A stretch of DNA of 63,786 nt, counting the filler, from an uncultured Acidimicrobiia bacterium (GTDB lineage Bacteria; Actinomycetota; Acidimicrobiia; Spongiisociales; JAOTWH01): NCBI GenBank assembly GCA_964347285.1. It is 3 parts of 3 records of this genome, joined end to end, with 100 filler letters (N's around TTAATTAATTAA, not from the genome) between each part and the next. Parts side by side here need not be neighbours in the genome. Positions count along the whole stretch, not along the records: positions 49,364 to 63,786 come from CAYFYE010000063.1; 2 more parts are not named here. One strand, written 5' to 3'. Below the pieces are notes generated by a model, which was given only the letters and a program-made list of their open reading frames with translations, ran no database searches and was not told the origin of the DNA. Below are positions 24,701 to 63,786 of the stretch, piece by piece; position 1 is the stretch's first letter; every line of letters starts with the position of its first letter. A program made the translations under genes and the position numbers.

Positions 24701-24800
24701 NNNNNNNNNNNNNNNNNNNNNNNNNNNNNNNNNNNNNNNNNNNNTTAATTAATTAANNNNNNNNNNNNNNNNNNNNNNNNNNNNNNNNNNNNNNNNNNNN
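24701..24800. other. Artificial contig linker (N44-TTAATTAATTAA-N44)
   Basis: 100 nt with a six-frame stop cassette; identical to the second linker. Confidence 0.97.
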
Positions 24801-45904: not shown

Positions 45905-48241
45905 TCAGATCCCCTTCTCGAAGTCATCCTCGAAGGACACGACGGTCCGGCCTTCCTTGGGCGGCTTCGTCCCGGCGGCGACGGCCTCGCGACGGGCTCG
46001 CGGCTTGCGGTCCCTGGCGCCTCGACGCCGCTCGCCGTCGTCGTCCCGCTTCTCGCGCCGCGGCGGAGCCTCTCGCTCCCGGCCCTCCTCGTCGGCCGGT
46101 GCGCCGGCCAGATCGAGACTCACCTTGCCGCGATCGTCGATCTCCCGAACGACGACTTCGACCCGATCACCGAGCCGATACTCGTCTTCCACCCGCTCGA
46201 GACGACGTCCGCCGCCCATCTTCGAGATGTGGAGCAGTCCGTCCCGACCGGGGAGCAGGTTGACGAAAGCGCCGAACTTGGTGATGTTGACGATTTCGCC
46301 CTCGTAGGTTGCCCCCAACTCGACTTCCGGAGGAAAGGCGATCTCGAGCACCTTGTCTTTGGCGGCTTTCAATTGAGCACCGTCGGAGGAGCCGATGACT
46401 ACGGTCCCGTCCTCCTGGACGTCGAGCGATGCTCCGGTCAGCTCCTCGATCTCACGAATCGTCTTGCCCTTGGGGCCGATGATCTCGCCGATCTTGTCCT
46501 TGGGTATCTCCACCGCCTCGATGCGTGGTGCGAACTGGTTCAGGTCGCTGCGGGGCTCCGGCAACGCCTTCTTCATGGCGGCCAGCACCTCGAGGCGGGC
46601 CCGCTTGGCCTGTTCCAAAGCTCCGGTGAGCACCTCGGCCGGGAGTGCTTTGATCTTTGTGTCGAGTTGCATGGCGGTGATCATGTCCGCCGTGCCGGCG
46701 ACCTTGAAGTCCATGTCGCCGAGAGCATCCTCGGCGCCCAGGATGTCGGTCAGGGTCACGAATCCGTCTTCGTGAGCGATCAGCCCCATGGCGATGCCGG
46801 CCACCGGCTCGGCAATGGGAACGCCGGCATCCATGAGGGCCAGGCTCGATCCACACACCGAGGCCATCGATGTGCTGCCGTTGGAGCTCAGCACGTCCGA
46901 CACCACGCGCACGGCATACGGGAACTCCTCCGCCGTCGGCACGACCGGCAGCACCGCTTTCTCGGCCAGGTATCCATGGCCGATCTCACGCCTCTTGGGC
47001 CCGCGCATGAACCCGACCTCTCCGGTCGAGAAGGGCGGGAAGTTGTAATGGTGCATGTATCGCTTCGACTCCTCGAGGGAGATCGTGTCGAGCATCTGCT
47101 CCATGCGCAGCATGCCCAGGGTGGCGACGCTCAGAACTTGGGTCTCCCCGCGCTGGAAGAGCCCGGTGCCGTGGGCACGGCTGACCACACCCACTTCGGC
47201 ACTCAGGTCACGGATCTGATCGGGAACCCGGCCGTCCAACCGCACCCCCTCTTCGATGACCCGGCGTCGCATCGCCTCCTTCAACAGGTTCCGCAAGATC
47301 TTGGCCACCCGGCCCTGTGTCTCGACGTCGTCCTCGGGCACCTCGAGGGCTCCCAGGGTCTCTTCGAGGGCGGTCTCCTCTGCGCTGCGCCGCTCCCTCT
47401 TGTCGGCGATCGCGACCAGGCGGGTCACCTTCTCGGCCGCCACCGTCCGGACCTTGGAGAGCATCTCCTCGCTGTAGTCCTCGACCACGGGGAACTCCAC
47501 TTCGGGCGGCTCGCCCACTTGGCCCGCCAGCTCTAACTGGAGCTCGATCATTTGGCCGATGTATTCCTTGGCCTCCTCGAGGCCGCCGGCAATCGTTTCC
47601 TCGTCGCTCGGGACCTGACCGGCCTGCACATGGCGATACCCGTCTTCGGTGGTCCCTGCTTCGACCATGGAGATGTCGATGCCGCCGTCCTCGTTGCGGG
47701 TGCCGGCCACCACGAGTTCGAACACACTGGCGTCGAGCTCCTCGAACGTTGGATATGCGATCCACTCCCCGTCCTTGAGGGCGAGGCGTACGGCACCAAT
47801 CGGGCCTTCGAAAGGGATCGGTGAGATCGTCAGAGCAGCCGAGGCACCGTTGAGAGCCACGATGTCGTACGGATTCTCGGCGTCCACCGACAGGACGGTG
47901 GCCACGATGTGCGTCTCGGAACGGAAGCCCTCTCGAAACGAGGGACGCAGGGGTCGATCGATGAGGCGAGCCGTCAGGATCGCCTTCTCGGTCGGCCGGC
48001 CCTCGCGGCGGAAGAACGAGCCGGGGATCTTCCCGGCGGCGTACATCCGCTCCTCGACGTCTACGGTGAGAGGAAAGAAGTCGACGCCGGGACGCAGCCC
48101 TCGGTCGGCGGTGGCGGTGACGAGGACCTCGGTGTCTCCCATCCGGGCCACCACCGAGCCGTCGGCGAGCAGCGCCATCTTCCCGGTAGTGATTGCAGTG
48201 TTCTTGCCGCCGATGGTGCGGCGAGCGGTCATATCAGCCAC
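45905..48241 (-). CDS. pnp: Polyribonucleotide nucleotidyltransferase (PNPase)
   Basis: FFPLTVDVEER, RREGRP, RREIGHG, SNGSTSMASVC, GDMDFKVAG, KH and S1 domains; AAGGAG RBS. Confidence 0.97.
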   Translation of the reverse strand: MADMTARRTIGGKNTAITTGKMALLADGSVVARMGDTEVLVTATADRGLRPGVDFFPLTVDVEERMYAAGKIPGSFFRREGRPTEKAILTARLIDRPLRPSFREGFRSETHIVATVLSVDAENPYDIVALNGASAALTISPIPFEGPIGAVRLALKDGEWIAYPTFEELDASVFELVVAGTRNEDGGIDISMVEAGTTEDGYRHVQAGQVPSDEETIAGGLEEAKEYIGQMIELQLELAGQVGEPPEVEFPVVEDYSEEMLSKVRTVAAEKVTRLVAIADKRERRSAEETALEETLGALEVPEDDVETQGRVAKILRNLLKEAMRRRVIEEGVRLDGRVPDQIRDLSAEVGVVSRAHGTGLFQRGETQVLSVATLGMLRMEQMLDTISLEESKRYMHHYNFPPFSTGEVGFMRGPKRREIGHGYLAEKAVLPVVPTAEEFPYAVRVVSDVLSSNGSTSMASVCGSSLALMDAGVPIAEPVAGIAMGLIAHEDGFVTLTDILGAEDALGDMDFKVAGTADMITAMQLDTKIKALPAEVLTGALEQAKRARLEVLAAMKKALPEPRSDLNQFAPRIEAVEIPKDKIGEIIGPKGKTIREIEELTGASLDVQEDGTVVIGSSDGAQLKAAKDKVLEIAFPPEVELGATYEGEIVNITKFGAFVNLLPGRDGLLHISKMGGGRRLERVEDEYRLGDRVEVVVREIDDRGKVSLDLAGAPADEEGREREAPPRREKRDDDGERRRGARDRKPRARREAVAAGTKPPKEGRTVVSFEDDFEKGI

Positions 48242-48269
48242 GCTGTCTCCTTGTGCGTGTTGGGGAGGG

Positions 48270-48341
48270 AGACGGCGGGCCAATTACCAGTGGCCACCCC
48301 CCGCCTGGGGGCGGGAGGTCGCCACTGACAACCGGCCGTCA
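48270..48341 (-). promoter_or_regulatory. rpsO-pnp intergenic long stem-loop (putative RNase III processing site)
   Basis: GGCCGGTTGTCAGTGGC pairs with GCCACTGGTAATTGGCC (with G-U pairs), closed by GACGGC/GCCGTC; position matches known pnp leader hairpins. Confidence 0.65.
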
Positions 48342-49263: not shown

Positions 49264-49363
49264 NNNNNNNNNNNNNNNNNNNNNNNNNNNNNNNNNNNNN
49301 NNNNNNNTTAATTAATTAANNNNNNNNNNNNNNNNNNNNNNNNNNNNNNNNNNNNNNNNNNNN
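49264..49363. other. Artificial contig linker (N44-TTAATTAATTAA-N44)
   Basis: Same 100-nt six-frame stop linker as at 24701. Confidence 0.97.
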
Positions 49364-50635
49364 GCCGCTGAACCGGAAGACGTTCAGTCCTTCGTTGATG
49401 TGGGTCTCGTAGATGAAGTTGTTGTACCAGTACGAGGACCACGCACCACCGATCTCACATCCGAGCCCACCGCAGAACGGTCCGCCCGGCGGTGGGATGG
49501 GGGGCGGATCCGAGAAGGCGATCTCCACGGCGTTCGCCGGGTCTGTGAAGTCGACCACGCTGGTGCCCGACTGATAGCTGCCGTGCACCAGAACGTCGCG
49601 ACCGCTGGGGAGCGGCACGACGTTGAAGTTGTGGATCGTGCAGTTCTCGATGTCCGACTGGAACCGGGTCAGTTCCCAGGTACCCAGCAGGTCTCCGTTG
49701 CCGGTGTCGTAGAAGAACAGTGACCGGTCCGAGGGTGGGTTGCTTTCCTGGCAGTTGGCCTGCACGCCGCCACCAGGCTCGTGGCCAAAGACCAGCACTT
49801 CACCGTCATAGCTGAAGGCTGCCGTGTGGCCGATGGAGACTCCCGGCACCGCTTCTGCCCTGACGAGTTCGGGGTCTTCGAGTGAGTCTTCCAGGCTCCA
49901 AAGCACGTAGCCCTCGTCCCCGGCGCAGGCCGCCAGCATGGCATCACCGAGGATGACCGCGGTGTCGTGACAGTCGGTTTCCGCCGGCTCGGTGCGGATA
50001 TATGCCGCTGCAGCCGGATCGTCCAAAGGCACCTCGACGATGTCGATCCCTTGACACTGACTGCCCGAGTTGTAGACGACGAGCCGACCGTTGGCCGGGT
50101 CGGGCACCCCCGTGGCCGTGTGCGAGCCGCAGCGACCGGGAATCGCACCCGTGCTCAGGTCGACGGACCCGACCAGGACCGGGTCTTCGACATCGCTGAT
50201 GTCGAAGACGTGCAGGCCCTCGAAGCCCTCAGCCACGGCTTCACCGTCGCAGTTGGCTCCTAGGCCGGCCGGTGAGTTCCACGACCTCACCAAGACGTCC
50301 TCCCACACGATGATGTCGCCCTGGTTGCCCGTACACGTCGTGAACGACACCTGCTTGGGATTGCCCGGCGCCGAGATGTCTCGAACGTTGAACCCGAGCC
50401 ATGAGCCCTGGAAGGCGTACTTGCCCCAGAAGGCCATGTCGGTGTGGATGTTCGGGTTGCCGACATCCGGGTTCAGCAGGCTGGCCGGCTCCTCGATGTG
50501 CCCCATCGGGTGCAGGTTCTTGGTCCGTGGATCGTCGTCGTGGCCGGCACCGGCCGGGCCGGCCGATAAGACCAGCACCACAGCCGACAGTGCAGCCAGC
50601 AGGACGAGCGCTCGAGTCTTTCTGAGTCGAGCCAT
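49364..50635 (-). CDS. Secreted LVIVD-repeat beta-propeller protein, 3'-truncated at contig end
   Basis: Signal peptide; TDMAFWG, C.G.QGD, FEG..VFDISD, CGSHT, CHD, GHT, CTIHN, YQSG, GAWSSYWYN. Confidence 0.8.
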
Positions 50636-51209
50636 GAGCATCCTCTCCCTTCCTGTTCGTTGCCGCAGTGCGGCAAAGCCCAATGGCGCCTGACACTACC
50701 AACTGTGGTCGTGCCGCATCGGATCGAGTGTTGATACTGCGGGTGGTCTCGGCACCGGCTGCTGAAGAATGGCAGCTCCATCATTCTCAACCGGGAGCCG
50801 GGGGGACCGGACTCAGCGACTTTCGGTACTGAGGGTCGCAGGGGCCGGCATGGATCTATCGAGGCCGAACTACCAAGAAGGAAAGCTCTGGCAACTGTGC
50901 CTTGACGGCCGACGCCTGGCCTCGCATCGGACGGCCGACACGAAGATGAACACGTCCATAAACCAAGGGCCGAGCTCCGGTAGGGCGGCAGTTGGGTCGC
51001 GAACCTCGCCGACAACGAGGAGCCGGGCGAAGACCGCGAAATCCGTTTTGGCTGCCGGTGTCGGGCCGCTTCGGCCCGGGACGGCCATCACATGCGAGCC
51101 CCTGTGTTCTGGGGCGGCCCGCGTAGTGGCAAACCCCCGGTGACGGCGCTGGCTCCAATGCCTGACGTCCCGGTGGGTGCGGCTTGCTCGGGTCGGGGAA
51201 GAGGCGGGC

Positions 51210-51686
51210 TCAGGCCTCCCTGGGGATCTTGCCACCCAGTCGCAGCATCCCTTTCATGATCCTGTGCCCGAAGTCGGCGGTGGGCGAATACATCAACGGG
51301 CACCCGCCCGCAATGCAGGTGATCCCCTGGTCCCGACACAACGAAGCGGCCGTCTCCGAGACGCTGCCCTCCCCAAACGAGCGGTGCATCCATACCCTGG
51401 TGATGCCCAGCTCGGCGCAATCCCTGACCACACTCTCGGCGACCTCGGGAGTGGTGGCCACCACGACCGCATCCACTCCTCCCGGAATGCTCTTGAGGTC
51501 GTGGTAGCAGGGATCGCCCTCGACCTCGTCGGCGTTGGGGTTGACCGCAAAGACCTCATACCCCCGGTCGCGCAGGCGCCGGTAGACGATGTTGCCGCCG
51601 TGCTCTTTGGGTTGGCGGGAGACCCCGGCTACGGCAATCCGCTTCTGGGCCAGGAAATCAGCCGCTGCTTCCTTCGCGGTTGGCAT
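51210..51686 (-). CDS. CoA-binding protein (YccU-like)
   Basis: IAVAGVSR, GYEVFAVNP, G..RVWMH, GGCPLM; GGAGGAG RBS. Confidence 0.85.
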   Translation of the reverse strand: MPTAKEAAADFLAQKRIAVAGVSRQPKEHGGNIVYRRLRDRGYEVFAVNPNADEVEGDPCYHDLKSIPGGVDAVVVATTPEVAESVVRDCAELGITRVWMHRSFGEGSVSETAASLCRDQGITCIAGGCPLMYSPTADFGHRIMKGMLRLGGKIPREA

Positions 51687-51723
51687 GGTGTTTCTCCTCC
51701 AGTATCTCCGCAGAGACGTCTCG

Positions 51724-51966
51724 TCAGGCAGCCGGCTGCTTGGCGGCCTCCCGCTCCTCGAGGATCTCGAGAATCCGCGTGGTCTGTTCACGGGTGGCGG
51801 CGACGTTGTCGAACATCACCCTCGGCGGGAAGTCCTCGGGCATCTCCGCCATGCGGGCCGCCATCCTCTCCCACATTGAGGCGCCGCCGGTGCACTTGCG
51901 AGCGAGCAGCGTCATGCCGACCACCGCACCGGCCACACCGAGTGTCACCAGGAGCCTTTTCTTCAT
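51724..51966 (-). CDS. Small membrane-anchored hypothetical protein
   Basis: GAGGGGG RBS, N-terminal TM, MPEDFPPRVMFDNV helical tail; co-oriented with the CoA-binding gene. Confidence 0.6.
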   Translation of the reverse strand: MKKRLLVTLGVAGAVVGMTLLARKCTGGASMWERMAARMAEMPEDFPPRVMFDNVAATREQTTRILEILEEREAAKQPAA

Positions 51967-52196
51967 CGTCAGTCCCCCTCTCGATCAGGGCCCGTCAACC
52001 TGTCTCTATACGACCGGTGGGCGGCCGTCCAGGGTCTAAGGACCCGACCCGACCGGGTCGGGCTGCCGGTCCGGAACACCTTCCCTCGAGCGGCCGTCCG
52101 GGCAACCAAGCAGGAGCCGGCGCCACCTAGGCTTGGCGGGGAGTGGTCAGCGCGCGCCGAAAGGGATGCCTTCGGCAACACACGGGAGGTAGCGGC

Positions 52197-53150
52197 ATGA
52201 GGAGCTTTGCCGGGAGGGACATCCTGTCCCTGAAGGACTTCGAGCGGGCCGAGTTCGAGCACGTGTTCGAGGTGGCCGACGAGCTGGAGCCGATCGCCCG
52301 GCGACGGCAGAACAGCGACCTGTTGAAGGACAAGACGCTGCTGACCGCCTTCTACCAGCCGTCCACCCGCACCCGCCTGGCCCACGAGGCGGCGATGCAC
52401 CGGCTCGGCGGGCACGTCCTCGGCTTTGCCGATCCCAAGATGACCCGGGCCGGAGACTTCTACCAGGAGTCGATCAAGGACACCGTCCACATGCTCGAGT
52501 ACTACGCCGACGTCATCGTGATGCGCCACTTCCAGCAAGGAGCGCCTCATGAGGCGGCAAAATGGGCCAGCGTGCCGGTGATCAACGCCGGGGACGGCTG
52601 GGGGGAACATCCCACCCAGGTGCTGACCGACCTCTACACGATCAGGCAAGAGGTCGGAGTGGTGGACGGGTTGACGTTCCTGGCGGTGGGTGACTGGCGG
52701 ATGCGGACCATGCACTCGCTCGGCTACGCCCTCACCCAGTTCGATTCCGACATCATCTACGTGTGTCCCGACGACATGGCCCCCACCAAGGAGTTCCTGG
52801 CCGAGGTGGAGGGCCAGAACCTCCGGATACGGCGGGCCGACCACGTGGCCGATGTGATGAGCGAGGTCGACGTGATCTACATGGAGCCGGTGGTGCAAGC
52901 CGACTACACCGCCAGCCGGGAGGAGGCTGTGGGGGAGAAAGGCCTCACTCCGGAGAACTTCAAGGTGACCCGGGAGCTGCTGGCGGACACAGCCAAGAGC
53001 GACTCGATCATCCTCCATTCACTGCCGCGCATGGACGAGCTGCCCACCGACGTCGACTCCACCCGTCACGCCCGTTACTGGCAGGAGGCCTACTACGGAG
53101 TGGTGATGCGCATGGCGCTGCTGGGCCTCGTGCTGGGAGCAATGGAGTAG
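52197..53150 (+). CDS. Aspartate-carbamoyltransferase-fold carbamoyltransferase, non-canonical
   Basis: STRTR, INAGDG..EHPTQ and HSLPR present; the PyrB R-x-Q-x-E-R motif is replaced by YMEPVVQ. Confidence 0.85.
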   Translation: MRSFAGRDILSLKDFERAEFEHVFEVADELEPIARRRQNSDLLKDKTLLTAFYQPSTRTRLAHEAAMHRLGGHVLGFADPKMTRAGDFYQESIKDTVHMLEYYADVIVMRHFQQGAPHEAAKWASVPVINAGDGWGEHPTQVLTDLYTIRQEVGVVDGLTFLAVGDWRMRTMHSLGYALTQFDSDIIYVCPDDMAPTKEFLAEVEGQNLRIRRADHVADVMSEVDVIYMEPVVQADYTASREEAVGEKGLTPENFKVTRELLADTAKSDSIILHSLPRMDELPTDVDSTRHARYWQEAYYGVVMRMALLGLVLGAME

Positions 53151-53179
53151 ACGCGGGAGCGGGGAGAGGAGGCGGTCGA

Positions 53180-54154
53180 ATGCAGACCTACCTGAAGGGC
53201 CGGGACATGATCACCACCCAGGAATGGTCCAAGGACGAGATCGACACCGTCCTCGACGTGGCTATGGATCTGAAGAGGATGCGCGCCCTCGGCATCGAGC
53301 ACCCCCTGCTGCGGGACAAGGTGCTGGCGATGCTGTTCTTCTTCTCGTCCACCCGGACCCGGGCCAGCTTCGAGGCGGGGATGGCCCAACTGGGCGGACA
53401 CGCCCAGTTCATCGAGTCGAAGACCACCCAGATCGCTCACGGCGACACCGCCACCGAGATCGGCGAGATCCTGGGCCGCTACAACGATGGCATCGCTATT
53501 CGCCAGGTGGATTGGGGAATCGGCAACAAGTACATCCGCGACGTGGCGGCGGCGTCGCGCACCCCTGTGCTCAACATGCAGTGCGAGATCTACCACCCGT
53601 TCCAGGTGCTGGCCGACCTACTGACGATCATCGAGCAGAAGGGGGATCCCGGCGGGCTAACCATCAACATGAGCTACGCCTACGCGGCCAGCTACCAGAA
53701 GCCGCTTTCGGTGCCGCAGTCGGTGATCCTGCTGATGAGCCGTTACGGCATGAACGTGCGCCTCACCCATCCGCCCGAGTTCATTCTCATGCCCGACATC
53801 GTGGCTCAGGCCGAGGAGAACGCGACGCGATCGGGAGGGTCCCTCGAGATCCTCGAGGACTTCGAGGAGGGCATGACGGGTGCCGATGTGGTCTACGCCA
53901 AGTCGTGGGGGTGCATGCTGACCACCGAGGACCCGGAGGAGTCGGCCAAGATCGGCGAGAAGTACCAGGACTGGATCACCGACGAGCGGCGGATGGGCCT
54001 GGCCAAGCCCGATGCCGTCTACATGCATCCGCTGCCCGCCGATCGCAACATCGAGGTGACCGATGACGTGATCGACGGTCCGCAGAGCGTCGTTTTCGAC
54101 CAGGCCGAGAACCGCCTCCACGTCCAGAAGGCGGTGATGGCGCTGACGATGTGA
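53180..54154 (+). CDS. YgeW-like knotted carbamoyltransferase
   Basis: STRTR, QIAHGDT, NMQC..YHPFQ, YAYAASYQKPLSVPQ, VVYAKSW and YMHPLPAD parallel E. coli YgeW motifs (QIAHGET, NLQC..DHPTQ, WAYSPSYGKPLSVPQ, YPKSW). Confidence 0.8.
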   Translation: MQTYLKGRDMITTQEWSKDEIDTVLDVAMDLKRMRALGIEHPLLRDKVLAMLFFFSSTRTRASFEAGMAQLGGHAQFIESKTTQIAHGDTATEIGEILGRYNDGIAIRQVDWGIGNKYIRDVAAASRTPVLNMQCEIYHPFQVLADLLTIIEQKGDPGGLTINMSYAYAASYQKPLSVPQSVILLMSRYGMNVRLTHPPEFILMPDIVAQAEENATRSGGSLEILEDFEEGMTGADVVYAKSWGCMLTTEDPEESAKIGEKYQDWITDERRMGLAKPDAVYMHPLPADRNIEVTDDVIDGPQSVVFDQAENRLHVQKAVMALTM

Positions 54155-54625
54155 CTCTTTGCTCGGCGGCCGGCCACTCTGTGACTTTGCTCGGCGGCCG
54201 GTGCCGCGACGAGCCCGTCGACCAGCAGCCGGCCGCCTCGCGGTGCTGCCGCCCCGCCGGACCCACCGCGTGGCTCGCCCGGAGGGCTCGCCTGGACCCA
54301 ACCCCGTGACTTTGCTTGGCGGCCGGGCACGATGGTCGGCGTCGATCTGCAGCCGGCCGCCTCGCGGTGCTGCCGCCCCACCCGGAGGCATCACCGGGCT
54401 CGCCCGCAGGGCTCGCTTGAATCCAACCCCGTGACCGTTTTCGGCGACCGGCCACGATGAGCGCCGTCGACCAGCAGCCGGCCGCCTCGCTGTGCTGCCG
54501 TCCCACCCGGAGGCATCACCGGGCTCGCCCGCAGGGCTCGCCTGAATCCAACCCCGTGACCGTTTTCGGCGATCGGCCACGATGAGCGCCGTCGACCAGC
54601 AGCCGGCCGCGTTGCGGTGCTGCCG
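54151..54625. repeat. Non-coding 125-bp tandem repeat array (about 3.5 copies plus a short partial copy)
   Basis: Units start with GTGAC at 54181, 54306, 54431 and 54556; shared CAGCCGGCCGC...GTGCTGCC and GGGCTCG...CCAACCCC; partial copy at 54151. Confidence 0.92.
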
Positions 54626-54667
54626 GCCCGTCGGAAGTCCAGCGGCGGAGCTGCCCGCCCGGCCCGG

Positions 54668-55633
54668 CTACTGCGCGGGTACGCCCACGACCGTGAACTC
54701 CAGATGGGGCGAGGGCACGCCGGGCGTGAATTCGCCAAAACAAGCGTTGACCGCGTAGATGGTGCTGCCGAACTTGGCCGCAGTCGTGGGGATCCGGAAG
54801 TCCGGGCTGGTCAGTGGGGCGTCGCTCACGACACCGGAGGTCAGCGATGGGTCGAGCGTCACGACGCCGATCTGATTGGAGAAATTCTGCACCACGTACA
54901 GGGTGCGGCCGGCCAGGACCAGACCATCTCCGTTCGGCACGCCGGCGCCTCCCAGGTCGATCTTGGAGGCGTAGCCGGTCCGGGAGTCCACCCGGTACAG
55001 GCTCGCGAAGGCCGTGTTCACGATCAGCCAATTGCCGTTGGGCGTGGCCTCGATGCCGTTCGCATTGGGGAACACCGCCGGGTCGAAGTCGAACTCGCCC
55101 CCGAGGGTGATTTCCTCAACGGCGGAGGGATCGGGCAGCTCGCCTCCCGCCCCAAGTGGGACCCGGTAGAGAACCGACCGTCCCGAGTCCGTGAAGTAGG
55201 CGGCATCGCGGGTCACGACGACATCGTTGATGAATACCCCGTTGAGCGGATACTCGGCCAGCTCGGCACCCGTCTCGGCGTCGTATACATAGGCCGATCC
55301 CGGAATGGGACCCAGGAACGGTCCGCCGCCGGCCACGAAGATCGCGTTGCTGCAGGTATCCGCGGCCAACCCCACGGCAATCCGGCCCTGTTGAGGCGGG
55401 ACCACCGTCTCACCGTCGCCGGTGCGCAGGTCGCCCCCGTACACGGCGCCGGTCAACAGCGAACCCACGAAGAAGTCGGTCCCGCGGCCAATCGCGATAC
55501 CTTCGGGCTGCCGACCGTTCGGAAGGTCGATCACTGCGGGAAACGTCTCGGGGTGTGGCGGAGTCGCCGACACCGACACCCCGGACGGGACCACCAGCGC
55601 CACGACCGCCAACACCTGAAGTAGCCGCTTCAT
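54668..55633 (-). CDS. Secreted SMP-30/gluconolactonase-like beta-propeller protein
   Basis: Signal peptide; QPEGIA, FINDVVV, YFTDS, NANGI, NGDGL, PTTAA; GAGGAGG RBS. Confidence 0.8.
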   Translation of the reverse strand: MKRLLQVLAVVALVVPSGVSVSATPPHPETFPAVIDLPNGRQPEGIAIGRGTDFFVGSLLTGAVYGGDLRTGDGETVVPPQQGRIAVGLAADTCSNAIFVAGGGPFLGPIPGSAYVYDAETGAELAEYPLNGVFINDVVVTRDAAYFTDSGRSVLYRVPLGAGGELPDPSAVEEITLGGEFDFDPAVFPNANGIEATPNGNWLIVNTAFASLYRVDSRTGYASKIDLGGAGVPNGDGLVLAGRTLYVVQNFSNQIGVVTLDPSLTSGVVSDAPLTSPDFRIPTTAAKFGSTIYAVNACFGEFTPGVPSPHLEFTVVGVPAQ

Positions 55634-55901
55634 CGTTCCTCCTCCCCTCGCGGGAGGCGAAACCTTGCATCTCGCCGTGCTTTCGGTGACGGAGCGCTCG
55701 AGCAGCCGCTGCCCGGACGATCCGGCGGCCACCGCGCCTAGCCGGCCGAGCATCGCGTCGGCCATCCGGGCCTGGGCCGCGCCGGTCGGCTCGGCGACCT
55801 CGGCCTGCTGCCGTTCCGTCGAGAGGCATTGCGCGGCTCGTTCGGAGGGGTACTCCCCGGGCCGCCGCGCCCCGCTCACCGAAACCGAGTAGAACTGGAC
55901 C

Positions 55902-56843
55902 ATGCCGCGCGCCGTAATTGCCATCGGGGGCAACTCCCTCATTGCCGACAGAGAGCACCAAACGGTCGAGGATCAGTACGAGGCGGCCAAGGAGACCACC
56001 GGGCACATCGCTGCGCTGATCGCGACCGGCTGGGAGGTGGCCATCTCCCACGGCAACGGACCCCAGGTCGGCTTCATCCTCCGTCGTTCCGAGCTGGCGG
56101 CCCACGAGCTGCACGAAGTGCCTCTCGACGTGTGCGGAGCCGACACCCAGGGCGCCATCGGCTACGCCCTTCAGCAGAATCTCTACAACCACTTTCGCCG
56201 CATGGGGGTCGAGCGGGAGGTGACCACCGTCGTCACCCAGGTAGAGGTGAGCGGGGACGATCCGGCCTTCAAGAACCCCTCCAAGCCCATCGGCTCGTTC
56301 ATGGATCAGCCCCAGGCCCAGCAGCGCCGAGAGCGGGACGGCTGGCACGTTGCGGAGGATGCCGGCCGGGGCTGGCGGCGGGTGGTGGCGTCTCCCGAAC
56401 CGTTGCGCATCGTCGAAGCCGAAGCCATTCGGCGCCTCATGGACGACGGCGTCGTCGTCATCGCCGTAGGGGGAGGAGGCATCCCGGTAGTGGCCGACGC
56501 CGAGGGAAACCTGTGGGGAGCGTCGGCGGTGATCGACAAAGACCTGGCGTCGGCGCTGCTGGCCCAGGTGATCGTTGCGGATCTCTTGCTGATCAGCACC
56601 GCCGTCGAGAAGGTAGCGCTCCACTTCGGCACCGATCGCCAGACGTGGGTCGCCAGCATGACTCTGGAAGAGGCCAAGGGCTACCTGGCTGAGGGGACCC
56701 ACTTCGCGGCGGGCAGCATGGCTCCCAAGATCCAAGCGGTGATCAACTATCTGGAGGCGGGAGGAGATCGGGCCATCATCACCGATCCGCCCAACATCGA
56801 GCGGGCCGTGGCCGGCGATACCGGGACCCACATCACGGCGTGA
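55902..56843 (+). CDS. arcC: Carbamate kinase
   Basis: AIGGNSL, HGNGPQVG, TQG.IGY, PSKPIG, WRRVVASP.P, AVIDKD, GSMAPKI. Confidence 0.95.
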   Translation: MPRAVIAIGGNSLIADREHQTVEDQYEAAKETTGHIAALIATGWEVAISHGNGPQVGFILRRSELAAHELHEVPLDVCGADTQGAIGYALQQNLYNHFRRMGVEREVTTVVTQVEVSGDDPAFKNPSKPIGSFMDQPQAQQRRERDGWHVAEDAGRGWRRVVASPEPLRIVEAEAIRRLMDDGVVVIAVGGGGIPVVADAEGNLWGASAVIDKDLASALLAQVIVADLLLISTAVEKVALHFGTDRQTWVASMTLEEAKGYLAEGTHFAAGSMAPKIQAVINYLEAGGDRAIITDPPNIERAVAGDTGTHITA

Positions 56844-58114
56844 TCCCCACTCCTACGCTCGACCACGTGCTCCGGCTGGAGTGCCTGGTGTGCAGGGAGC
56901 AGTACGACCCGGCCGACGTGGACTACGTGTGTCCCGAGCATGGGGCGGTGGGCACGCTCGACGTCGTCTACGACTACGAGCTGGTGGCCAGCCGTCTCAA
57001 GCGGCGCGACCTCCGCGACAGCCATGACACCACCATGTGGCGGTACAAGGCGCTGCTGCCGGTTCACTCCGACGCCGCGGTGCCTCCCTTGTCGATCGGC
57101 TGGACGCCGATATACCGGGCCGATCGCCTGGCGTCCGCCCTGGGCATCGGCGAGGTGTGGGTGAAGGACGACGGCCGCCAGCCCACGGCGTCGTTCAAGG
57201 ACCGGGCCTCGGCCGTTGCGGTCGTGAAGGCTCGGGAACGCCGGGCCGAGATCGTCACCACCGCTTCGACCGGCAACGCCGCAGCTGCACTCAGCGGAGT
57301 CAGCGCCAGCGTTGGCCAGCCCAACGTCATCTTCGTGCCGGAGTCGGCCCCCCAGGCCAAAGTGGCCCAGCTGCTGGCCTTTGGCTCGACGGTGCTGTTG
57401 GTCGAGGGCAGCTACGACCAGGCGTTCGATCTCTGCATGGAGGCCGCCGAGCGATTCGGCTGGTACAACCGCAATACCGGTGTCAATCCCTACATGACCG
57501 AGGGAAAGAAGACCGCCATGCTCGAGGTCTTCGAGCAGTTCGAGGGGGACCTCCCGGACGCGGTGATGGTGAGCGTGGGGGACGGCTGCATCATCGGGGG
57601 GCTGCACAAAGGGCTGACGGATCTGACCGCTCTGGGCTGGATCGAGGCGATGCCCAGACTCATCGGAGTCCAGGCCGAGGGCAGCAGCTTCTTCGTGCAG
57701 GCCTGGGAGAACAACGAGAACGTGCTCACCAAGCCGGCGGCGCCGGCCGACACCGTGGCCGACTCGATCTCAGCCGGGCTGCCCCGGGATCGCATCAAGG
57801 CAATGAAGGCGGTGCGGGACACCGGCGGCGAGTTCTTGGCCGTAAGCGATGCCGAGATCCTGGCCGCCATACCGGCCTTGGCGCGCGGCGCAGGGGTGTT
57901 TGCCGAGCCGGCCGCGGCGGCCTCCTATGCCGGCCTGGTGCAGGCGGCCGACCGGGGGATAGTTGGAGCCGACGACCGGATTCTGGTCATGTCCACCGGT
58001 TCCGGGCTCAAGGACGTCCCGGCGGCGATGGAGGCGGTGGAGGAGGCCGGGGTTGAGCCGGCGCGGGTGAAGCCGGAGCTTGGAGCCGTGGAGGAGGCCC
58101 TGGCCGCCCGGTGA
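56840..58114 (+). CDS. Threonine-synthase-like PLP enzyme (fold type II)
   Basis: N-terminal CxxC...C, PTASFKDR, ASTGNAA, EGKKT, SVGDG, FAEPAAAA, TGSGLKD. Confidence 0.85.
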   Translation: MIPTPTLDHVLRLECLVCREQYDPADVDYVCPEHGAVGTLDVVYDYELVASRLKRRDLRDSHDTTMWRYKALLPVHSDAAVPPLSIGWTPIYRADRLASALGIGEVWVKDDGRQPTASFKDRASAVAVVKARERRAEIVTTASTGNAAAALSGVSASVGQPNVIFVPESAPQAKVAQLLAFGSTVLLVEGSYDQAFDLCMEAAERFGWYNRNTGVNPYMTEGKKTAMLEVFEQFEGDLPDAVMVSVGDGCIIGGLHKGLTDLTALGWIEAMPRLIGVQAEGSSFFVQAWENNENVLTKPAAPADTVADSISAGLPRDRIKAMKAVRDTGGEFLAVSDAEILAAIPALARGAGVFAEPAAAASYAGLVQAADRGIVGADDRILVMSTGSGLKDVPAAMEAVEEAGVEPARVKPELGAVEEALAAR

Positions 58115-58178: not shown

Positions 58179-59645
58179 ATGATCGACCTCTCCGTCAACG
58201 AGCAGGGCCTGGAGCGGGCCGTCGAGCAGGCCCGACAGCGCAACATCGTCATACCCACCTTCGCCCAGATGCGCGATCCGGGCCTGATTCCGGATTCGAT
58301 CAAGGCCGACCTCGAGCAGATCGGTCTGTGGGACCTCGATCCGCTGAACCTGTTCCGCATCAGCTGGCATAACGAGCCGGTGGAGAAAGGGGGCGGCTTT
58401 GGAGACGTCAACTACCTGGAGTTTCCCAGCGAGCTCACCGGCACCGAGGCCCGGATCGTGGCGCTGGTCGGCAAGTGGTTCCCCACCGGGGCCCACAAAG
58501 TGGGGGCCGCCTTCGGGTGCCTCGTGCCCCGGCTGGTGACCGGCCAGTTCGACCCCTCATCGCAGAAGGCGGCCTGGCCGTCGACCGGCAACTACTGCCG
58601 GGGTGGGGCCTACGACTCCAACCTGCTCGGCTGTGAGTCGATCGCCATCCTCCCCGAGGGAATGAGCAAGGAGCGCTTCGACTGGTTGGCCACCGTGGCC
58701 GGCGAGGTCATCAAGACTCCCGGTTCGGAGAGCAACGTCAAGGAGATCTTCGACAAGTGCAAGGAGTTGGCGGCGTCGGGGGAGGACATCGTCATCTTCA
58801 ACCAGTTCGACGAGTTCGGTAACTACCTCTGGCACTACGCGGTGACCGGGCCGGCGATGATGGAGGTCCTCGAGGAGGTGTTGGGGCCCGGGGATGCGTA
58901 TCGGGGGGTGACGGCCAACACCGGCTCGGCGGGGACGATCGGGTGCGGCGACTACCTCAAGCAGCAGTTTCCCACGTCGAAGGTGGCGGCCTCGGAGGCC
59001 CTGCAGTGCCCGACGCTCCTACTGAACGGGTTCGGGGCCCATCGCATCGAGGGCATAGGCGACAAGCACGTCCCCTGGATCCACAACGTGCGCAACACGG
59101 ACCTCGTGACCGCCATCGACGACGCCGCCCCGATGGCGCTGATCCGCCTCTTCAATGAACCGGCCGGCCAGGACTACCTGGCCGCTCAGGGAGTGCCGCC
59201 GGCCTTAATCGAGCAGCTGCCGCTCCTCGGTATCTCCGGAGTGGCCAACCTGCTGTCGGCGATCAAATTCGCCAAATGGTTCGAGATGGGGCCTCGGGAC
59301 GTGGTGCTGACGGTGGCCACCGACTCGATGGAGCTGTACCGCAGCCGCCTGGCTGAGCTGCGAGAGGACGAGGGAGACTTCAACGATACCGGCGCGGCCG
59401 CCGCCTATCACCGCTACCTGCTGGGGACAACCACCGACAACATGGGGGAACTCGACCACTACGGCCGCCGTCGCATTCACAATCTCAAGTACTTCACCTG
59501 GGTCGAGCAGCAGGGCAAGAGCGTCGACGACCTCGAAGCCCAGTGGTACGACCCGGAGTACTGGACCCGGATCCAGGACCTGGCCGGGCCCATCGACGAG
59601 CTCATCGAGGCGTTCAACGAGCGCACCGGGCTCCGGGCCACGTAG
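58179..59645 (+). CDS. Uncharacterised PLP-dependent beta-family (fold type II) enzyme
   Basis: FPTGAHKVG (PLP lysine), STGNY, MSKER, NQF, TGSAGT, HRIEGIG. Confidence 0.82.
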   Translation: MIDLSVNEQGLERAVEQARQRNIVIPTFAQMRDPGLIPDSIKADLEQIGLWDLDPLNLFRISWHNEPVEKGGGFGDVNYLEFPSELTGTEARIVALVGKWFPTGAHKVGAAFGCLVPRLVTGQFDPSSQKAAWPSTGNYCRGGAYDSNLLGCESIAILPEGMSKERFDWLATVAGEVIKTPGSESNVKEIFDKCKELAASGEDIVIFNQFDEFGNYLWHYAVTGPAMMEVLEEVLGPGDAYRGVTANTGSAGTIGCGDYLKQQFPTSKVAASEALQCPTLLLNGFGAHRIEGIGDKHVPWIHNVRNTDLVTAIDDAAPMALIRLFNEPAGQDYLAAQGVPPALIEQLPLLGISGVANLLSAIKFAKWFEMGPRDVVLTVATDSMELYRSRLAELREDEGDFNDTGAAAAYHRYLLGTTTDNMGELDHYGRRRIHNLKYFTWVEQQGKSVDDLEAQWYDPEYWTRIQDLAGPIDELIEAFNERTGLRAT

Positions 59646-61616: not shown

Positions 61617-62990
61617 ATGGCGACTCTCCTGGTGAAGAACGCCGAAGTGCTCGTCACCATGGACGACGCCGGTAGCGAGATCAACGGAGGGGGGCTCTTT
61701 GCCCGGGACGGGTTCATCGACCGGGTGGGCCCCGCCTCGGAACTGCCCGCCGAGGCGGACGAGGTCCTCGATCTGGCCGGCCACGCCGTGCTTCCCGGGC
61801 TCGTCAACACCCACCATCACCTCTATCAGACGCTGAGCCGGGCGGTTCCCGGCGCCCAGGACGCCGGGCTCTTCGACTGGCTGCGCACCCTCTACCCGAT
61901 CTGGGCCCGGCTCACTCCATCCGACGTGTACGTCTCCACCAAACTGGGCCTGGCCGAGCTGGCGTTGTCGGGCTGCACCACCAGCTCCGACCACCTCTAC
62001 CTGTGGCCCAACGGTTCCCGCCTCGACGACCAGGTGCGGGCGGCCCGTGAGGTCGGCCTGCGCTTCCACGCCGGGCGGGGCTCGATGAGCCTCGGGGAGA
62101 GCGCCGGGGGCCTTCCCCCCGACTCGGTGGTAGAGCCCGAGAACGAGATCTTCGCCGATACCCAGCGGGTCGTCGAGGCCTTCCACGATCCCGAGCCGGG
62201 GGCGATGATCCGGGTGGTGGTAGCGCCGTGTTCGCCGTTCTCGGTGACCCAGGACGCCATGCGGGAAGCGGCGGCGCTGGCTCGCCACTACGGCGTTCAC
62301 CTCCACACCCATCTGGCCGAGACCAAAGACGAGGAGGAGTTCTGCCTGGATACCTACGGCAAGCGTCCGGTCGAGCTGGCCGAATCGCTGGACTGGATGG
62401 GCCCCGACGTGTGGTTTGCCCACGGCGTCTTCGTCGATGAGGAGGAGGTGAGCCGCATGGCCGACGCCGGCACCGGGGTGGCGCACTGCCCGACGTCCAA
62501 CATGCGTCTGGCCTCGGGTATCGCCCCGGTGGCCGCCTACTCGGCGCACGGCGTCCGGCTGGGACTGGGCGTGGACGGTTCGGCGAGCAACGACGGCAGC
62601 CACATGCTGGCCGAGGCCCGCCAGGCCATGTTGGTAGCTCGGCTGGCGGCCGCCCCCGGGGTCGGTAAGGAGAGACCGCAGCTCAGTGCCCGCCGGGCTC
62701 TGGAGATGGCGACCCGGGGCGGGGCCGCAGTGCTGGGGCGCGACGACATCGGATCCCTGGAGCCGGGCAAGTGTGCCGACTTCTTCGCCGTGGACCTCGG
62801 CCGCATCGAGTATGCCGGAGCTCGCCATGATCCGGTGGCGGCGGTGGTGCTGTGCGCTCCGACTCCGGCCGCCTACACCTACGTGCACGGCCGCCCGGTG
62901 GTGGTCGAGGGCCGGTTTCCGGCCATCGACCTCGAAGCGTTGGTGCACACGCACAACCAGGCGGCGCAGCGACTGGTGGCGAGCGAGTAA
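61617..62990 (+). CDS. 8-oxoguanine deaminase (amidohydrolase superfamily)
   Basis: PGLVNTHHHLYQ, PCSPFS subfamily motif, HTHLAET, HCPTSN, GVDGSASND. Confidence 0.88.
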   Translation: MATLLVKNAEVLVTMDDAGSEINGGGLFARDGFIDRVGPASELPAEADEVLDLAGHAVLPGLVNTHHHLYQTLSRAVPGAQDAGLFDWLRTLYPIWARLTPSDVYVSTKLGLAELALSGCTTSSDHLYLWPNGSRLDDQVRAAREVGLRFHAGRGSMSLGESAGGLPPDSVVEPENEIFADTQRVVEAFHDPEPGAMIRVVVAPCSPFSVTQDAMREAAALARHYGVHLHTHLAETKDEEEFCLDTYGKRPVELAESLDWMGPDVWFAHGVFVDEEEVSRMADAGTGVAHCPTSNMRLASGIAPVAAYSAHGVRLGLGVDGSASNDGSHMLAEARQAMLVARLAAAPGVGKERPQLSARRALEMATRGGAAVLGRDDIGSLEPGKCADFFAVDLGRIEYAGARHDPVAAVVLCAPTPAAYTYVHGRPVVVEGRFPAIDLEALVHTHNQAAQRLVASE

Positions 62991-63041
62991 CCCCGACAGT
63001 CCATCGGGAACAGGGCGGCAGCCCGACTAGCTTTGGAGCCC

Positions 63042-63786
63042 GTGGACGTGACCCTGCCGACATCTCTCGACGAGGCACTGGCCGCGCTTTCCAGCCATCC
63101 CGAGGCCACGTTGCTGGCCGGGGGCACCGACGTCATGGTCGAGGTCAACATGGGGGGCTACCGGCCCGAGCACGTCATCGGCCTGCGCCGGGTCCCCGAG
63201 CTGGCGGAGTGGGAGGGCCGCCGCATAGGCGCCGGGGTGACCTACCGGAGAATGGAGAGCGGCCCCTATCCGGCCCTGGCCCAGCTGGCGCGCACCATCG
63301 GCTCGCCGCAGATTCGCAACGCCGGGACGATCGGCGGCAACCTGGGGACCGCCAGCCCGGCCGGCGACTCGCTGCCGTTCCTGGCCGCCCTCGACGCCGA
63401 GGTCGAGCTGGCCTCGGCAGAGGGGAGGCGGACGCTCCGCTGGGACGACTTCCTCACCGGCGTCAAGCAGAACGCCAGGAGGCCGGGCGAGCTGATCACC
63501 GCCATCACGCTTCCCGAGCGAGTCCCAGAGCGTCAGGCCTTTGCCAAGATTGGTGTCAGGAGCGCCATGGTGATCTCGACCGTCTCGGCCTGCCTGTTCC
63601 GCGACGAGGACGGCACCACCACGATCGCTCTGGGATCGGTGGCGCCAACCCCGATGCGAGCCCGCCGTGCCGAGGCGATGATCTCGGCGGAGTCGAGCCC
63701 CTCGGAAGCGGCCAAGGCCGAGTTCGCCCGTCTGGTCTCGGAGGAGGTGCGACCGATCACCGACCATCGCAGCACCGAGTCCTACC
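63042..63786 (+). CDS. Xanthine dehydrogenase/CoxM-family FAD-binding subunit, 3'-partial
   Basis: Read manually from GTG at 63042 (absent from the ORF track): PTSLDEALA, LAGGTD, IGSPQIRNAGTIGGNLGTASPAGD, GSVAPTP, PITDHRST; runs off the window. Confidence 0.9.
   Translation, partial: MDVTLPTSLDEALAALSSHPEATLLAGGTDVMVEVNMGGYRPEHVIGLRRVPELAEWEGRRIGAGVTYRRMESGPYPALAQLARTIGSPQIRNAGTIGGNLGTASPAGDSLPFLAALDAEVELASAEGRRTLRWDDFLTGVKQNARRPGELITAITLPERVPERQAFAKIGVRSAMVISTVSACLFRDEDGTTTIALGSVAPTPMRARRAEAMISAESSPSEAAKAEFARLVSEEVRPITDHRSTESY

Follow-up and report, generated by a model that had tools for sequence, protein, structure and literature searches.

A candidate pseudo-aspartate carbamoyltransferase of uncultured Acidimicrobiia, adjacent to a second carbamoyltransferase and likely to serve reductive purine catabolism

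The CT1 gene and its carbamoyl-phosphate site

The stretch of DNA analysed here (the window) comprises 63,786 bases from an uncultured Acidimicrobiia bacterium. This report concerns one of its genes, called CT1 below, which lies at positions 52197..53150 on the forward strand and encodes a 317-amino-acid (aa) carbamoyltransferase with the fold of aspartate carbamoyltransferase (ATCase). Downstream of CT1 on the same strand are genes for a second carbamoyltransferase, CT2, and for a carbamate kinase. The window joins three contigs of one metagenome-assembled genome (MAG), C30 (1-24700), C31 (24801-49263) and C63 (49364-63786), with N spacers at 24701-24800 and 49264-49363. Physical linkage to CT1 holds for contig C63 only (14.4 kb, 68% G+C); the PNPase gene (45905-48283) and the other genes at 45-49 kb were rejected as CT1 context, everything to the left of 49364 being a separate contig. 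The source genome (G000) is a 90% complete MAG of 2.63 Mb in 187 contigs, whose nearest named relatives are Acidimicrobiia MAGs.

The open reading frame (ORF) of CT1 is intact, with 317 codons and a stop, a GGGAGG ribosome-binding site 7 nt before the ATG, a G+C fraction at third codon positions of 0.88 and coding-type codon statistics. Full-length homologues align over residues 1-317, and therefore the coordinates assigned in the sequence-only reading, an earlier interpretation of this DNA made without database searches, are those of the gene. The product matches PF02729 (160.5 bits) and PF00185 (91.3 bits), and its closest solved structure is the ATCase of Pyrococcus abyssi, 1ml4 (E 1.1e-70). 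An AlphaFold2 model computed from an alignment of 71 sequences (predicted local distance difference test, pLDDT, 94.4; predicted template modelling score, pTM, 0.93) superimposes on 1ml4 with a template modelling (TM) score of 0.90 in Foldseek, which supports the predicted fold and says nothing about the substrate. Model confidence is lower only at the 80s loop and at residues 231-250 (pLDDT 70 and 62 in 231-250); such values at the 240s loop would be expected of a mobile substrate loop.

The elements that bind carbamoyl phosphate are retained: STRT at residues 56-59, MRH at 109-111, HPTQ at 138-141 and HSLPR at 274-278. The segment GDWRMRTMHSL at 165-175 supplies Arg170, the counterpart of E. 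coli Arg167, and Arg110 corresponds to Arg105. Motif conservation was counted in the 120 closest CT1 homologues, all of which keep STRT, HPTQ and MRH; HSLPR is likewise present in 120/120. The sequence-only reading had claimed that the carbamoyl-phosphate motifs and the Arg167 equivalent were kept, and every motif that it listed was found where it had been placed.

The rewired aspartate pocket

CT1 was compared by alignment with the PyrB of E. coli and that of its own genome, and the 120 family members were contrasted with 48 ATCases that bear the RxQ motif. In ATCase, Arg229 and Gln231 hold the beta-carboxylate of aspartate, while Arg167 together with Lys84 holds the alpha-carboxylate (Shi et al. 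2015, PMC4581275); that paper does state the roles of Arg229/Gln231 and Arg167 that the sequence-only reading had taken as established. In CT1 the 80s loop, residues 81-92 (52437..52472, forward strand), reads KMTRAGDFYQES. It carries a two-residue Gly-Asp insertion, and Ser80 and Lys84 of PyrB are replaced by Arg84 and Tyr89, respectively. The 240s-loop motif, residues 228-237 (52878..52907, forward strand), is YMEPVVQADY, so that YMT-RVQKER of E. coli has become YME-PVVQADY, one residue longer: Thr228 is changed to Glu, Arg229 is lost, and Glu233 and Arg234 are changed to Asp and Tyr. The register near Arg229 varies with the aligner, and no alignment offers an Arg there. The alignments to both PyrB proteins thus agree with the earlier claims that the PyrB 240s motif is replaced and the 80s loop altered, and that the residues binding the beta-carboxylate are gone.

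These changes are characteristic of the whole family. The pattern YMEPVVQ[AP]DY occurs in 120/120 homologues (one reads YLE) and KMTRAGD[FY]YQES in 110/120, whereas the RxQxER motif, Lys84 and Ser80 are missing from all 120. Because the motifs are near-invariant in these homologues, the rewired loops reflect neither chance nor decay. Relative to ATCase, the family-invariant changes are E50Q, S58A, F59H, S80R, K84Y, L140T and G166M in the first half of the chain, followed by T228E, loss of R229, E233D, R234Y, P266S, F286W and Q288E; Arg229, Lys84, Ser80, Glu50 and Arg234 are replaced by invariant Pro/Val, Tyr, Arg, Gln and Tyr, in that order. To judge from its sequence, CT1 would be an active carbamoyltransferase that keeps the ATCase fold and has given up aspartate as a substrate.

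Phylogenetic position of CT1

The genome encodes four genes of the carbamoyltransferase fold. An authentic pyrB lies on contig C18 between pyrC (dihydroorotase) and pyrF (orotidine monophosphate decarboxylase); its product scores 362.9 bits against TIGR00670 and 313.3 bits against NF002032 (cut-off 263) and carries YVTRVQKERF and SKGES. Another gene of this fold, on contig C39, is ArgF. CT1 itself passes the TIGR00670 cut-off (253 bits against 236.95), falls below that of NF002032 (226 against 263) and scores 34 bits against TIGR03316. Since CT1 is just over the TIGR00670 cut-off, its homologues carry the name aspartate carbamoyltransferase in the databases, as the sequence-only reading had foreseen in predicting mislabelling as pyrB.

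For the phylogeny, the 150 best matches among 1.84 billion representatives were taken, and the 91 of 285-365 aa were kept. Five family members, E. coli PyrB, the genome's own PyrB, ArgF and CT2 were added, and four rows that looked frameshifted (P0127, P0131, P0139 and P0165) were removed. The final tree of 97 rows was a quick IQ-TREE run under LG+G4, with SH-aLRT values as the only support. Eight CT1-family rows form a single clade (support 99) nested in a clade of 39 rows (97) that includes no row with RxQ. The PyrB proteins of E. coli and of this genome fall in the other group, where 48 of 51 rows have RxQ (support 90); five further rows lacking RxQ are unresolved at the base. What unites the rows without RxQ is T-R-A-G-D in the 80s loop and the deletion of one residue ahead of Arg167, and their 240s loops are widely divergent. 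At the Ser80 position, Arg is found in 92% of the remaining pseudo-ATCase rows. The phylogeny had been suggested as a check in the sequence-only reading; CT1 was placed outside the PyrB sequences. Its gene also stands outside any pyr operon, neither pyrI nor any other pyr gene being found among its annotated neighbours. We conclude that CT1 is almost certainly not PyrB.

On sequence grounds, CT1 is one of the "pseudo-ATCases" of Barba et al. (2013): its family is labelled ATCase, STRT and HPTQ are kept while RxQ is missing, HPLP is altered, and an authentic ATCase is encoded in the same genome. The class was thus already named in 2013, and a similar neighbourhood was described for one Nocardioides genome, with no function proposed in the available part of that paper (PMC4016543). 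A full-text literature search found no paper that gives this subfamily a function or describes a variant with two transferases.

CT2 and the conserved gene module

The gene for CT2 (53180..54154, forward strand, 324 aa) begins 29 nt after the CT1 stop codon. The protein belongs to the branch of ornithine carbamoyltransferase (OTC), acetylornithine carbamoyltransferase (AOTC) and YgeW and is below every NCBIfam cut-off, scoring 260 against 306 for OTC, 248 against 288 for AOTC and 195 against 453 for YgeW. Its matches among solved structures are the OTCase 1pvv (6e-62), an AOTCase (6e-56) and E. coli YgeW, 3q98 (6e-49).

Homologues of CT1 with 73-90% identity occur over Acidimicrobiia, Nitriliruptoraceae, Anaerolineae, Verrucomicrobiota, Zixibacteria and Eisenbacteria; Pelolinea submarina and Leptolinea sp. 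HRD-7 (Anaerolineae) are cultured carriers. At least 586 genome stretches encode a CT1 relative. Eighty loci were kept and neighbours counted within 10 kb, downstream linkage being counted in the 65 loci with at least 3 kb of downstream sequence. In 54 of these 65, CT2 follows CT1 downstream on the same strand, usually at a distance of 2-170 bases (median, a few tens of bases), and it is elsewhere in the locus in three more. A carbamate kinase gene accompanies CT1 in 57/65, and four of the 65 loci have CT1 followed by carbamate kinase without CT2.

On contig C63, CT2 is followed by a tandem array at 54181-54629 (125-bp unit, 3.6 copies, 86% match), for which there was no Rfam match, and by a reverse-strand ORF without a family match at 54668-55633. 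Since a hydrophobic stretch comes after an internal Met (MKRLLQVLAVV...), this ORF may encode a secreted protein of about 321 aa; tblastn found no counterpart among the 80 related loci. The carbamate kinase gene lies at 55902..56843 on the forward strand (NF009007, 385.5 bits against a cut-off of 266; TIGR00746, 367.5 against 358.25). Its stop codon is overlapped by a gene (56840..58114, forward strand) for a ThrC-like enzyme of the fold-type-II pyridoxal phosphate (PLP) group, with 246 bits for PALP and 293 bits for NF006050, which misses the cut-off of 303. This is a paralogue, a separate second thrC being present on contig C32. Next is a CysK-like fold-type-II PLP enzyme of 488 aa (58179..59645, forward strand; PALP 52 bits; cysK 84 bits, missing the cut-off of 351). 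A reverse-strand gene resembling L-2-hydroxyglutarate oxidase separates it from an amidohydrolase that scores as 8-oxoguanine deaminase (61617..62990, forward strand; NF006055, 664 bits against 532). The last gene, at 62991..63785 on the forward strand, encodes a FAD-binding subunit of the xanthine dehydrogenase (XDH) family, which scores below the cut-offs of TIGR02963 (157 bits) and NF043083 (149 bits) because it is cut by the contig end.

Upstream of CT1, the sole ORF with a family is a divergent gene for a CoA-binding-domain protein (51210-51791, reverse strand; PF13380, 98.7 bits). At this place many relatives have a GntR/UTRA regulator. A 317-aa ORF at 51177-52130, with no family match and non-coding codon statistics, was rejected. 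No riboswitch or other RNA element was detected at E up to 0.01 in positions 50600-56000 of the window.

Several of these neighbours recur among the 80 loci. The ThrC-like enzyme is found in 41, the 8-oxoguanine-deaminase-like amidohydrolase in 38-41 and the CysK-like enzyme in 21-24. XDH subunits are found in 10-15. Other recurrent genes encode adenine deaminase (33/80), a PnrA/Bmp-type ABC transporter (about 25-28/80), a YgeY-like M20 peptidase (16/80) and a compact SsnA-like protein (10/80), while YgfK, an XdhD-like protein and HyuA are each found in 2-4. An ORF of 247 aa stands immediately upstream of CT1 in 41/80 loci; in locus L022, the 247-aa ORF at this position is a GntR/UTRA regulator.

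In two loci, L017 and L014, CT1 is beside a true YgeY (469.8 bits against a cut-off of 321.5) and CT2 is not nearby. The former, which is verrucomicrobial, has CT1, the true YgeY and an acetate kinase at L017:7416-9919, followed by XDH subunits; CT2 and carbamate kinase are absent within 10 kb of CT1, and a CT2-like gene is on another contig.

Reductive urate pathway genes in CT1 genomes

The reductive urate pathway was described for gut bacteria by Li et al. (2025, PMC12507026) and in a preprint by Liu et al. (2025). According to these studies, XdhD converts urate to 2,8-dioxopurine, which is reduced by YgfK, and SsnA and HyuA then open the two rings to give 2,3-diureidopropionate. YgeW phosphorolyses one of the two ureido groups, feeding the carbamate kinase YqeA, which yields ATP; YgeY hydrolyses the other, and YgeX converts 2,3-diaminopropionate to pyruvate. 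Between 2,3-diureidopropionate and 2,3-diaminopropionate, the intermediate is albizziin or 3-amino-2-ureidopropionate.

The genome that contains CT1 has candidates for the upper part of this route. On contig C22 there are genes for an XdhD-like protein (TIGR03311, 833.6 bits against 830.45) and YgfK (TIGR03315, 914.9 against 835.3), and HyuA is encoded on contig C1 (TIGR02033, 553.7 against 393.25). Between the XdhD-like and YgfK genes of C22, on the reverse strand (L088:5617-6639), is the gene for a compact SsnA-like amidohydrolase of 340 aa, which scores 252.9 bits against a cut-off of 444 and matches the model from position 58 onward. This compact form, 70-79% identical, is found within 10 kb of CT1 in nine actinobacterial loci and may be a distinct ring-opening variant. 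In this 90% complete genome, no protein exceeds the YgeW cut-off, the best being CT2 (175 bits against 500), and the best matches to YgeY and YgeX reach 91 bits (cut-off 321.5) and 56 bits (cut-off 276), respectively. A YgeX orthologue was not found in 4/5 CT1 genomes searched, and uricase was found in 0/5, the present genome included.

A related Acidimicrobiia genome has CT2, CT1, carbamate kinase and both PLP genes in one region, with genes for adenosine deaminase, YgfK and HyuA located 10-20 kb upstream of them. When a class-level sample of 151 genomes was searched, CT1 orthologues (at least 68% identity) were found in 12. Eight of the 12 have YgfK over the cut-off, a ninth has a copy cut by a contig end (803 bits), and in the remaining three a shorter YgfK-N-like gene lies at a distance of 6-8 kb from CT1. 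Among the 139 genomes that lack CT1, one has YgfK. This contrast between related genomes, which is not a statistical test, suggests that CT1 and YgfK occur together.

In Anaerolineae, co-occurrence with SsnA was considered as evidence and set aside as non-discriminating. SsnA is over the cut-off in 85/121 sampled Anaerolineae genomes and CT1 is present in 19/121; most SsnA-bearing Anaerolineae must finish the pathway with other enzymes. In Pelolinea submarina (L085), SsnA is encoded about 0.5 Mb from the CT1 cluster together with XDH subunits, an F420-dependent LLM reductase, cofC/cofD/cofE, NADPH-F420 reductase and an M20 dipeptidase. By its gene content this cluster is a putative self-contained, F420-based upper urate pathway, and it corresponds to the Chloroflexota variant mentioned by Li et al. 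(PMC12507026). The HyuA gene of Pelolinea is just past its CT1 cluster.

Proposed function of CT1

In the ATCase scaffold, carbamoyl phosphate meets an alpha-amino acid at its alpha-nitrogen. The phosphorolytic direction is the one used by catabolic OTCase, putrescine carbamoyltransferase, YgeW and the Rubrobacter enzyme. Since CT1 is linked to a carbamate kinase gene, it very probably produces carbamoyl phosphate for that enzyme, and a place in the reductive purine route is likely. CT1 keeps the clamp for the alpha-carboxylate (Arg167 and Arg105 in E. coli numbering), has lost the charges of Arg229 and Lys84 and has gained a glutamate, Glu230, so a side chain bearing a neutral ureido group or a cationic amino group would fit. 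From such features we infer the direction of the reaction, the pathway and the ureido group attacked, as well as the substrate. The reading that we favour, by a little over even chances, is that CT1 acts in the reductive urate pathway, where it removes the 2-ureido group from a diaminopropionate ureide by phosphorolysis and so feeds carbamate kinase. In this reaction CT1 would bind an N-alpha-carbamoyl (2-ureido) acid, either 2,3-diureidopropionate, yielding albizziin, or 3-amino-2-ureidopropionate, yielding 2,3-diaminopropionate, and would cleave it with phosphate to carbamoyl phosphate, which the carbamate kinase of the cluster would convert to ATP, CO2 and NH3. The sequence-only reading had named ureido- or amino-alanine derivatives as substrates, and the gene context points to the same compounds, which are retained here as candidates; its implication that an amine is carbamoylated fares less well, the direction probably being the reverse, phosphorolysis of a ureide.

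CT2 is the natural candidate for the 3-ureido group because its branch acts on side-chain amines, and with CT2 in this role both ureido groups would end as carbamoyl phosphate. Both PLP enzymes come from families that carry out beta-elimination or beta-replacement, and they would take over the removal of the C3 amino acid when there is no YgeX. We put forward more tentatively, at somewhat less than even chances, the wider proposal that CT1, specific for N-alpha of diaminopropionate ureides and thus with an activity new to the literature, and CT2 together draw carbamoyl phosphate from both groups of 2,3-diureidopropionate, giving two ATP per purine rather than one, that the PLP enzymes replace YgeX, and that this is the common environmental form of the pathway in Acidimicrobiia, Anaerolineae and other uncultured lineages, far outside the gut anaerobes.

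A number of observations weigh against the function proposed for CT1. CT2 is also present in 10/11 two-flank loci that have a YgeY-like peptidase, and CT1, CT2 and this peptidase make three candidates for cleaving two ureido groups, which exceeds the need; for the same reason, replacement of the YgeY hydrolase by CT1 was dropped as the whole story. In the window, the repeat array and the reverse-strand gene split CT2 from carbamate kinase, so that the adjacency usual in most relatives is interrupted by the array. The upper pathway genes of this 90% complete MAG are on contigs other than that of CT1. The co-occurrence counts overstate the case because the genomes are related and not independent, and in Anaerolineae SsnA is found in 89/121 genomes, including 18/19 with CT1 and 71/102 without it. 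Li et al. (PMC12507026) and Liu et al. do not agree on the ureido group that YgeW removes, which means that CT1 and CT2 could have their roles reversed. Finally, Liu et al. (2025) propose the R (D) configuration for the ureide; ATCase handles L-aspartate, and an R substrate would require a binding mode inverted relative to it.

Such a reversal, with CT1 cleaving the 3-ureido (N-beta) group and the YgeW-like CT2 the 2-ureido group, would leave the pathway the same. It would agree with the report that E. coli YgeW, the nearest characterised relative of CT2, removes the 2-ureido group to give albizziin (Li et al., PMC12507026), and with the two loci in which CT1 stands beside a true YgeY with no CT2 close by. 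According to Liu et al. (2025), however, YgeW takes the 3-ureido group. Carbamoylation falls on the alpha-amino nitrogen in the ATCase architecture and on side-chain amines in the OTC/AOTC/YgeW branch, and CT1 retains Arg167 yet has lost Arg229, which would be needed for the carboxylate of a beta-ureido substrate; we regard the reversal as unlikely. That no uricase was found in the five CT1 genomes searched speaks against a second possibility, that CT1 is a ureidoglycine carbamoyltransferase like Rxyl_2847 of Rubrobacter, phosphorolysing allantoate in an allantoin-type route. That is the sole activity assayed for a pseudo-ATCase (Barba et al. 2013, PMC4016543), and Rxyl_2847 likewise adjoins a carbamate kinase among purine genes (PMC4016543). 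The annotated loci, however, have no block of allantoinase and 5-hydroxyisourate (HIU) hydrolase genes beside CT1, the CT1 clade is distinct and has its own invariant 240s motif, and YgfK, SsnA-like, HyuA and beta-eliminating-type PLP neighbours suit a C3 skeleton better, all of which makes this possibility quite improbable. HyuA also matches the dihydropyrimidinase family (TIGR02033), and YgfK is similar to reductases of the dihydropyrimidine dehydrogenase type, as would suit an enzyme that degrades a pyrimidine-derived ureide, N-carbamoyl-beta-alanine or carbamoyl-aspartate, for ATP; Shi et al. (PMC4581275) raised such enzymes as a possibility. We give this little credence, given that the recurrent neighbours are purine-specific (adenine or adenosine deaminase, XDH, the PnrA-type transporter and the 8-oxoguanine-deaminase-like protein), that carbamoyl-aspartate would require the lost Arg229, and that N-carbamoyl-beta-alanine offers no alpha-carboxylate to Arg167.

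An oxamate carbamoyltransferase that cleaves oxalurate has long been sought in the ATCase fold, and coupling to carbamate kinase would suit it, but the oxamate enzyme of E. coli is AllFGH, of a different fold. An anabolic carbamoyltransferase of natural-product synthesis also has a precedent in the L-2,3-diaminopropionate transcarbamylases of antibiotic biosynthesis; these are, however, OTC-branch enzymes with an HDLP motif (PMC4016543, PMC4581275), the annotated loci showed no biosynthetic genes, and about 75% identity across phyla is more typical of core catabolism. Either identity would be very improbable for CT1. That CT1 is instead a genuine second ATCase, an isozyme of PyrB, is hardly credible: the TIGR00670 score, the top structural and sequence matches, which are to ATCases, and the database name all speak for it, against which stand the family-wide loss of RxQxER, Lys84 and Ser80, the failure against NF002032, the canonical pyrC-pyrB-pyrF elsewhere in the genome with no pyrI or pyr neighbours at CT1, and the tree position outside the RxQ group.

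Comparison with known carbamoyltransferases

CT1 has the fold of the ATCase catalytic chains of E. coli and P. abyssi and shows 37-40% identity to solved ATCases in structural alignments. It differs from them in lacking RxQxER, Lys84, Ser80, Glu50 and Arg234, in having HSLP for HPLP, and in its genomic context. As for the pseudo-ATCases of Barba et al. (2013, PMC4016543), which likewise keep STRT and HPTQ, lack RxQ and co-reside with an authentic PyrB, the nearest true ATCase is that of P. abyssi. The gene context resembles that of the Nocardioides sp. JS614 subgroup in having an adjacent ygeW homologue (CT2) and xdh on the same contig, with HyuA on another contig (PMC4016543). This likeness is to the published description, not to a sequence; a plasmid search for the Nocardioides homologue gave only pyrB genes of less than 60% identity (56 records). 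The HSLP of CT1 with V-Q-A (V-Q-P in 25/120 homologues) is a loose fit to the table row "HSLP + VXP" of that paper (PMC4016543). Unlike that single-organism subgroup, the CT1 family is spread over many genomes. In the table of Barba et al., the row "pseudo-ATCase 1" has HPLA (PMC4016543). The Rubrobacter enzyme, assigned to group 1 in the figure of that paper, has H(T/S)LP according to Shi et al. (PMC4581275); the rows of the table may not match the groups of the figure.

Rxyl_2847 of Rubrobacter xylanophilus is, like CT1, a pseudo-ATCase beside a carbamate kinase, and it is catabolic, phosphorolysing a purine-derived ureide (PMC4016543). Its cluster, however, has uricase, HIU hydrolase and allantoinase, and its substrate is allantoate (PMC4016543), whereas CT1 belongs to a separate, tightly conserved clade. 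The YgeW-YqeA pair of E. coli is likewise a carbamoyltransferase with a carbamate kinase (PMC12507026). Of the enzymes upstream of it, XdhD, YgfK and HyuA have counterparts in the CT1 genome, as SsnA may have in the compact SsnA-like protein. YgeW is a knotted enzyme of the branch of AOTC and succinylornithine carbamoyltransferase, while CT1 is of the ATCase branch. The system described here also differs from the E. coli pathway in its two carbamoyltransferases, in its ThrC-like and CysK-like PLP enzymes and in that YgeY and YgeX were not found in the genome. The available text of Li et al. (PMC12507026) mentions neither an ATCase-type enzyme nor two transferases. With the diaminopropionate carbamoyltransferase (DPTCase) of antibiotic biosynthesis, which makes beta-ureidoalanine (albizziin) from diaminopropionate, CT1 would share the C3 diamino-acid skeleton of the substrate. 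DPTCase is an anabolic, HDLP-bearing enzyme of the OTC branch that acts on the beta-amine (PMC4016543, PMC4581275), whereas CT1 comes from the ATCase branch and probably has a catabolic role, with N-alpha as its probable site of action.

Implications

Thousands of entries of this family are named aspartate carbamoyltransferase, by which pyrimidine biosynthesis is overstated and a probable purine-catabolic function is hidden in metabolic models of uncultured bacteria. For enzyme evolution, CT1 presents a clean change of specificity in a textbook allosteric fold: some dozen invariant substitutions cluster in the pair of mobile loops by which the second substrate is enclosed. If the function proposed for CT1 is correct, the reductive urate pathway, described in 2025 from gut bacteria, would extend to widespread lineages of soil, sediment and groundwater, and a second step of substrate-level phosphorylation would be added to it. 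The family would then also serve as a natural experiment for matching each transferase type with the ureido group that it attacks, a point left unsettled by the 2025 studies.

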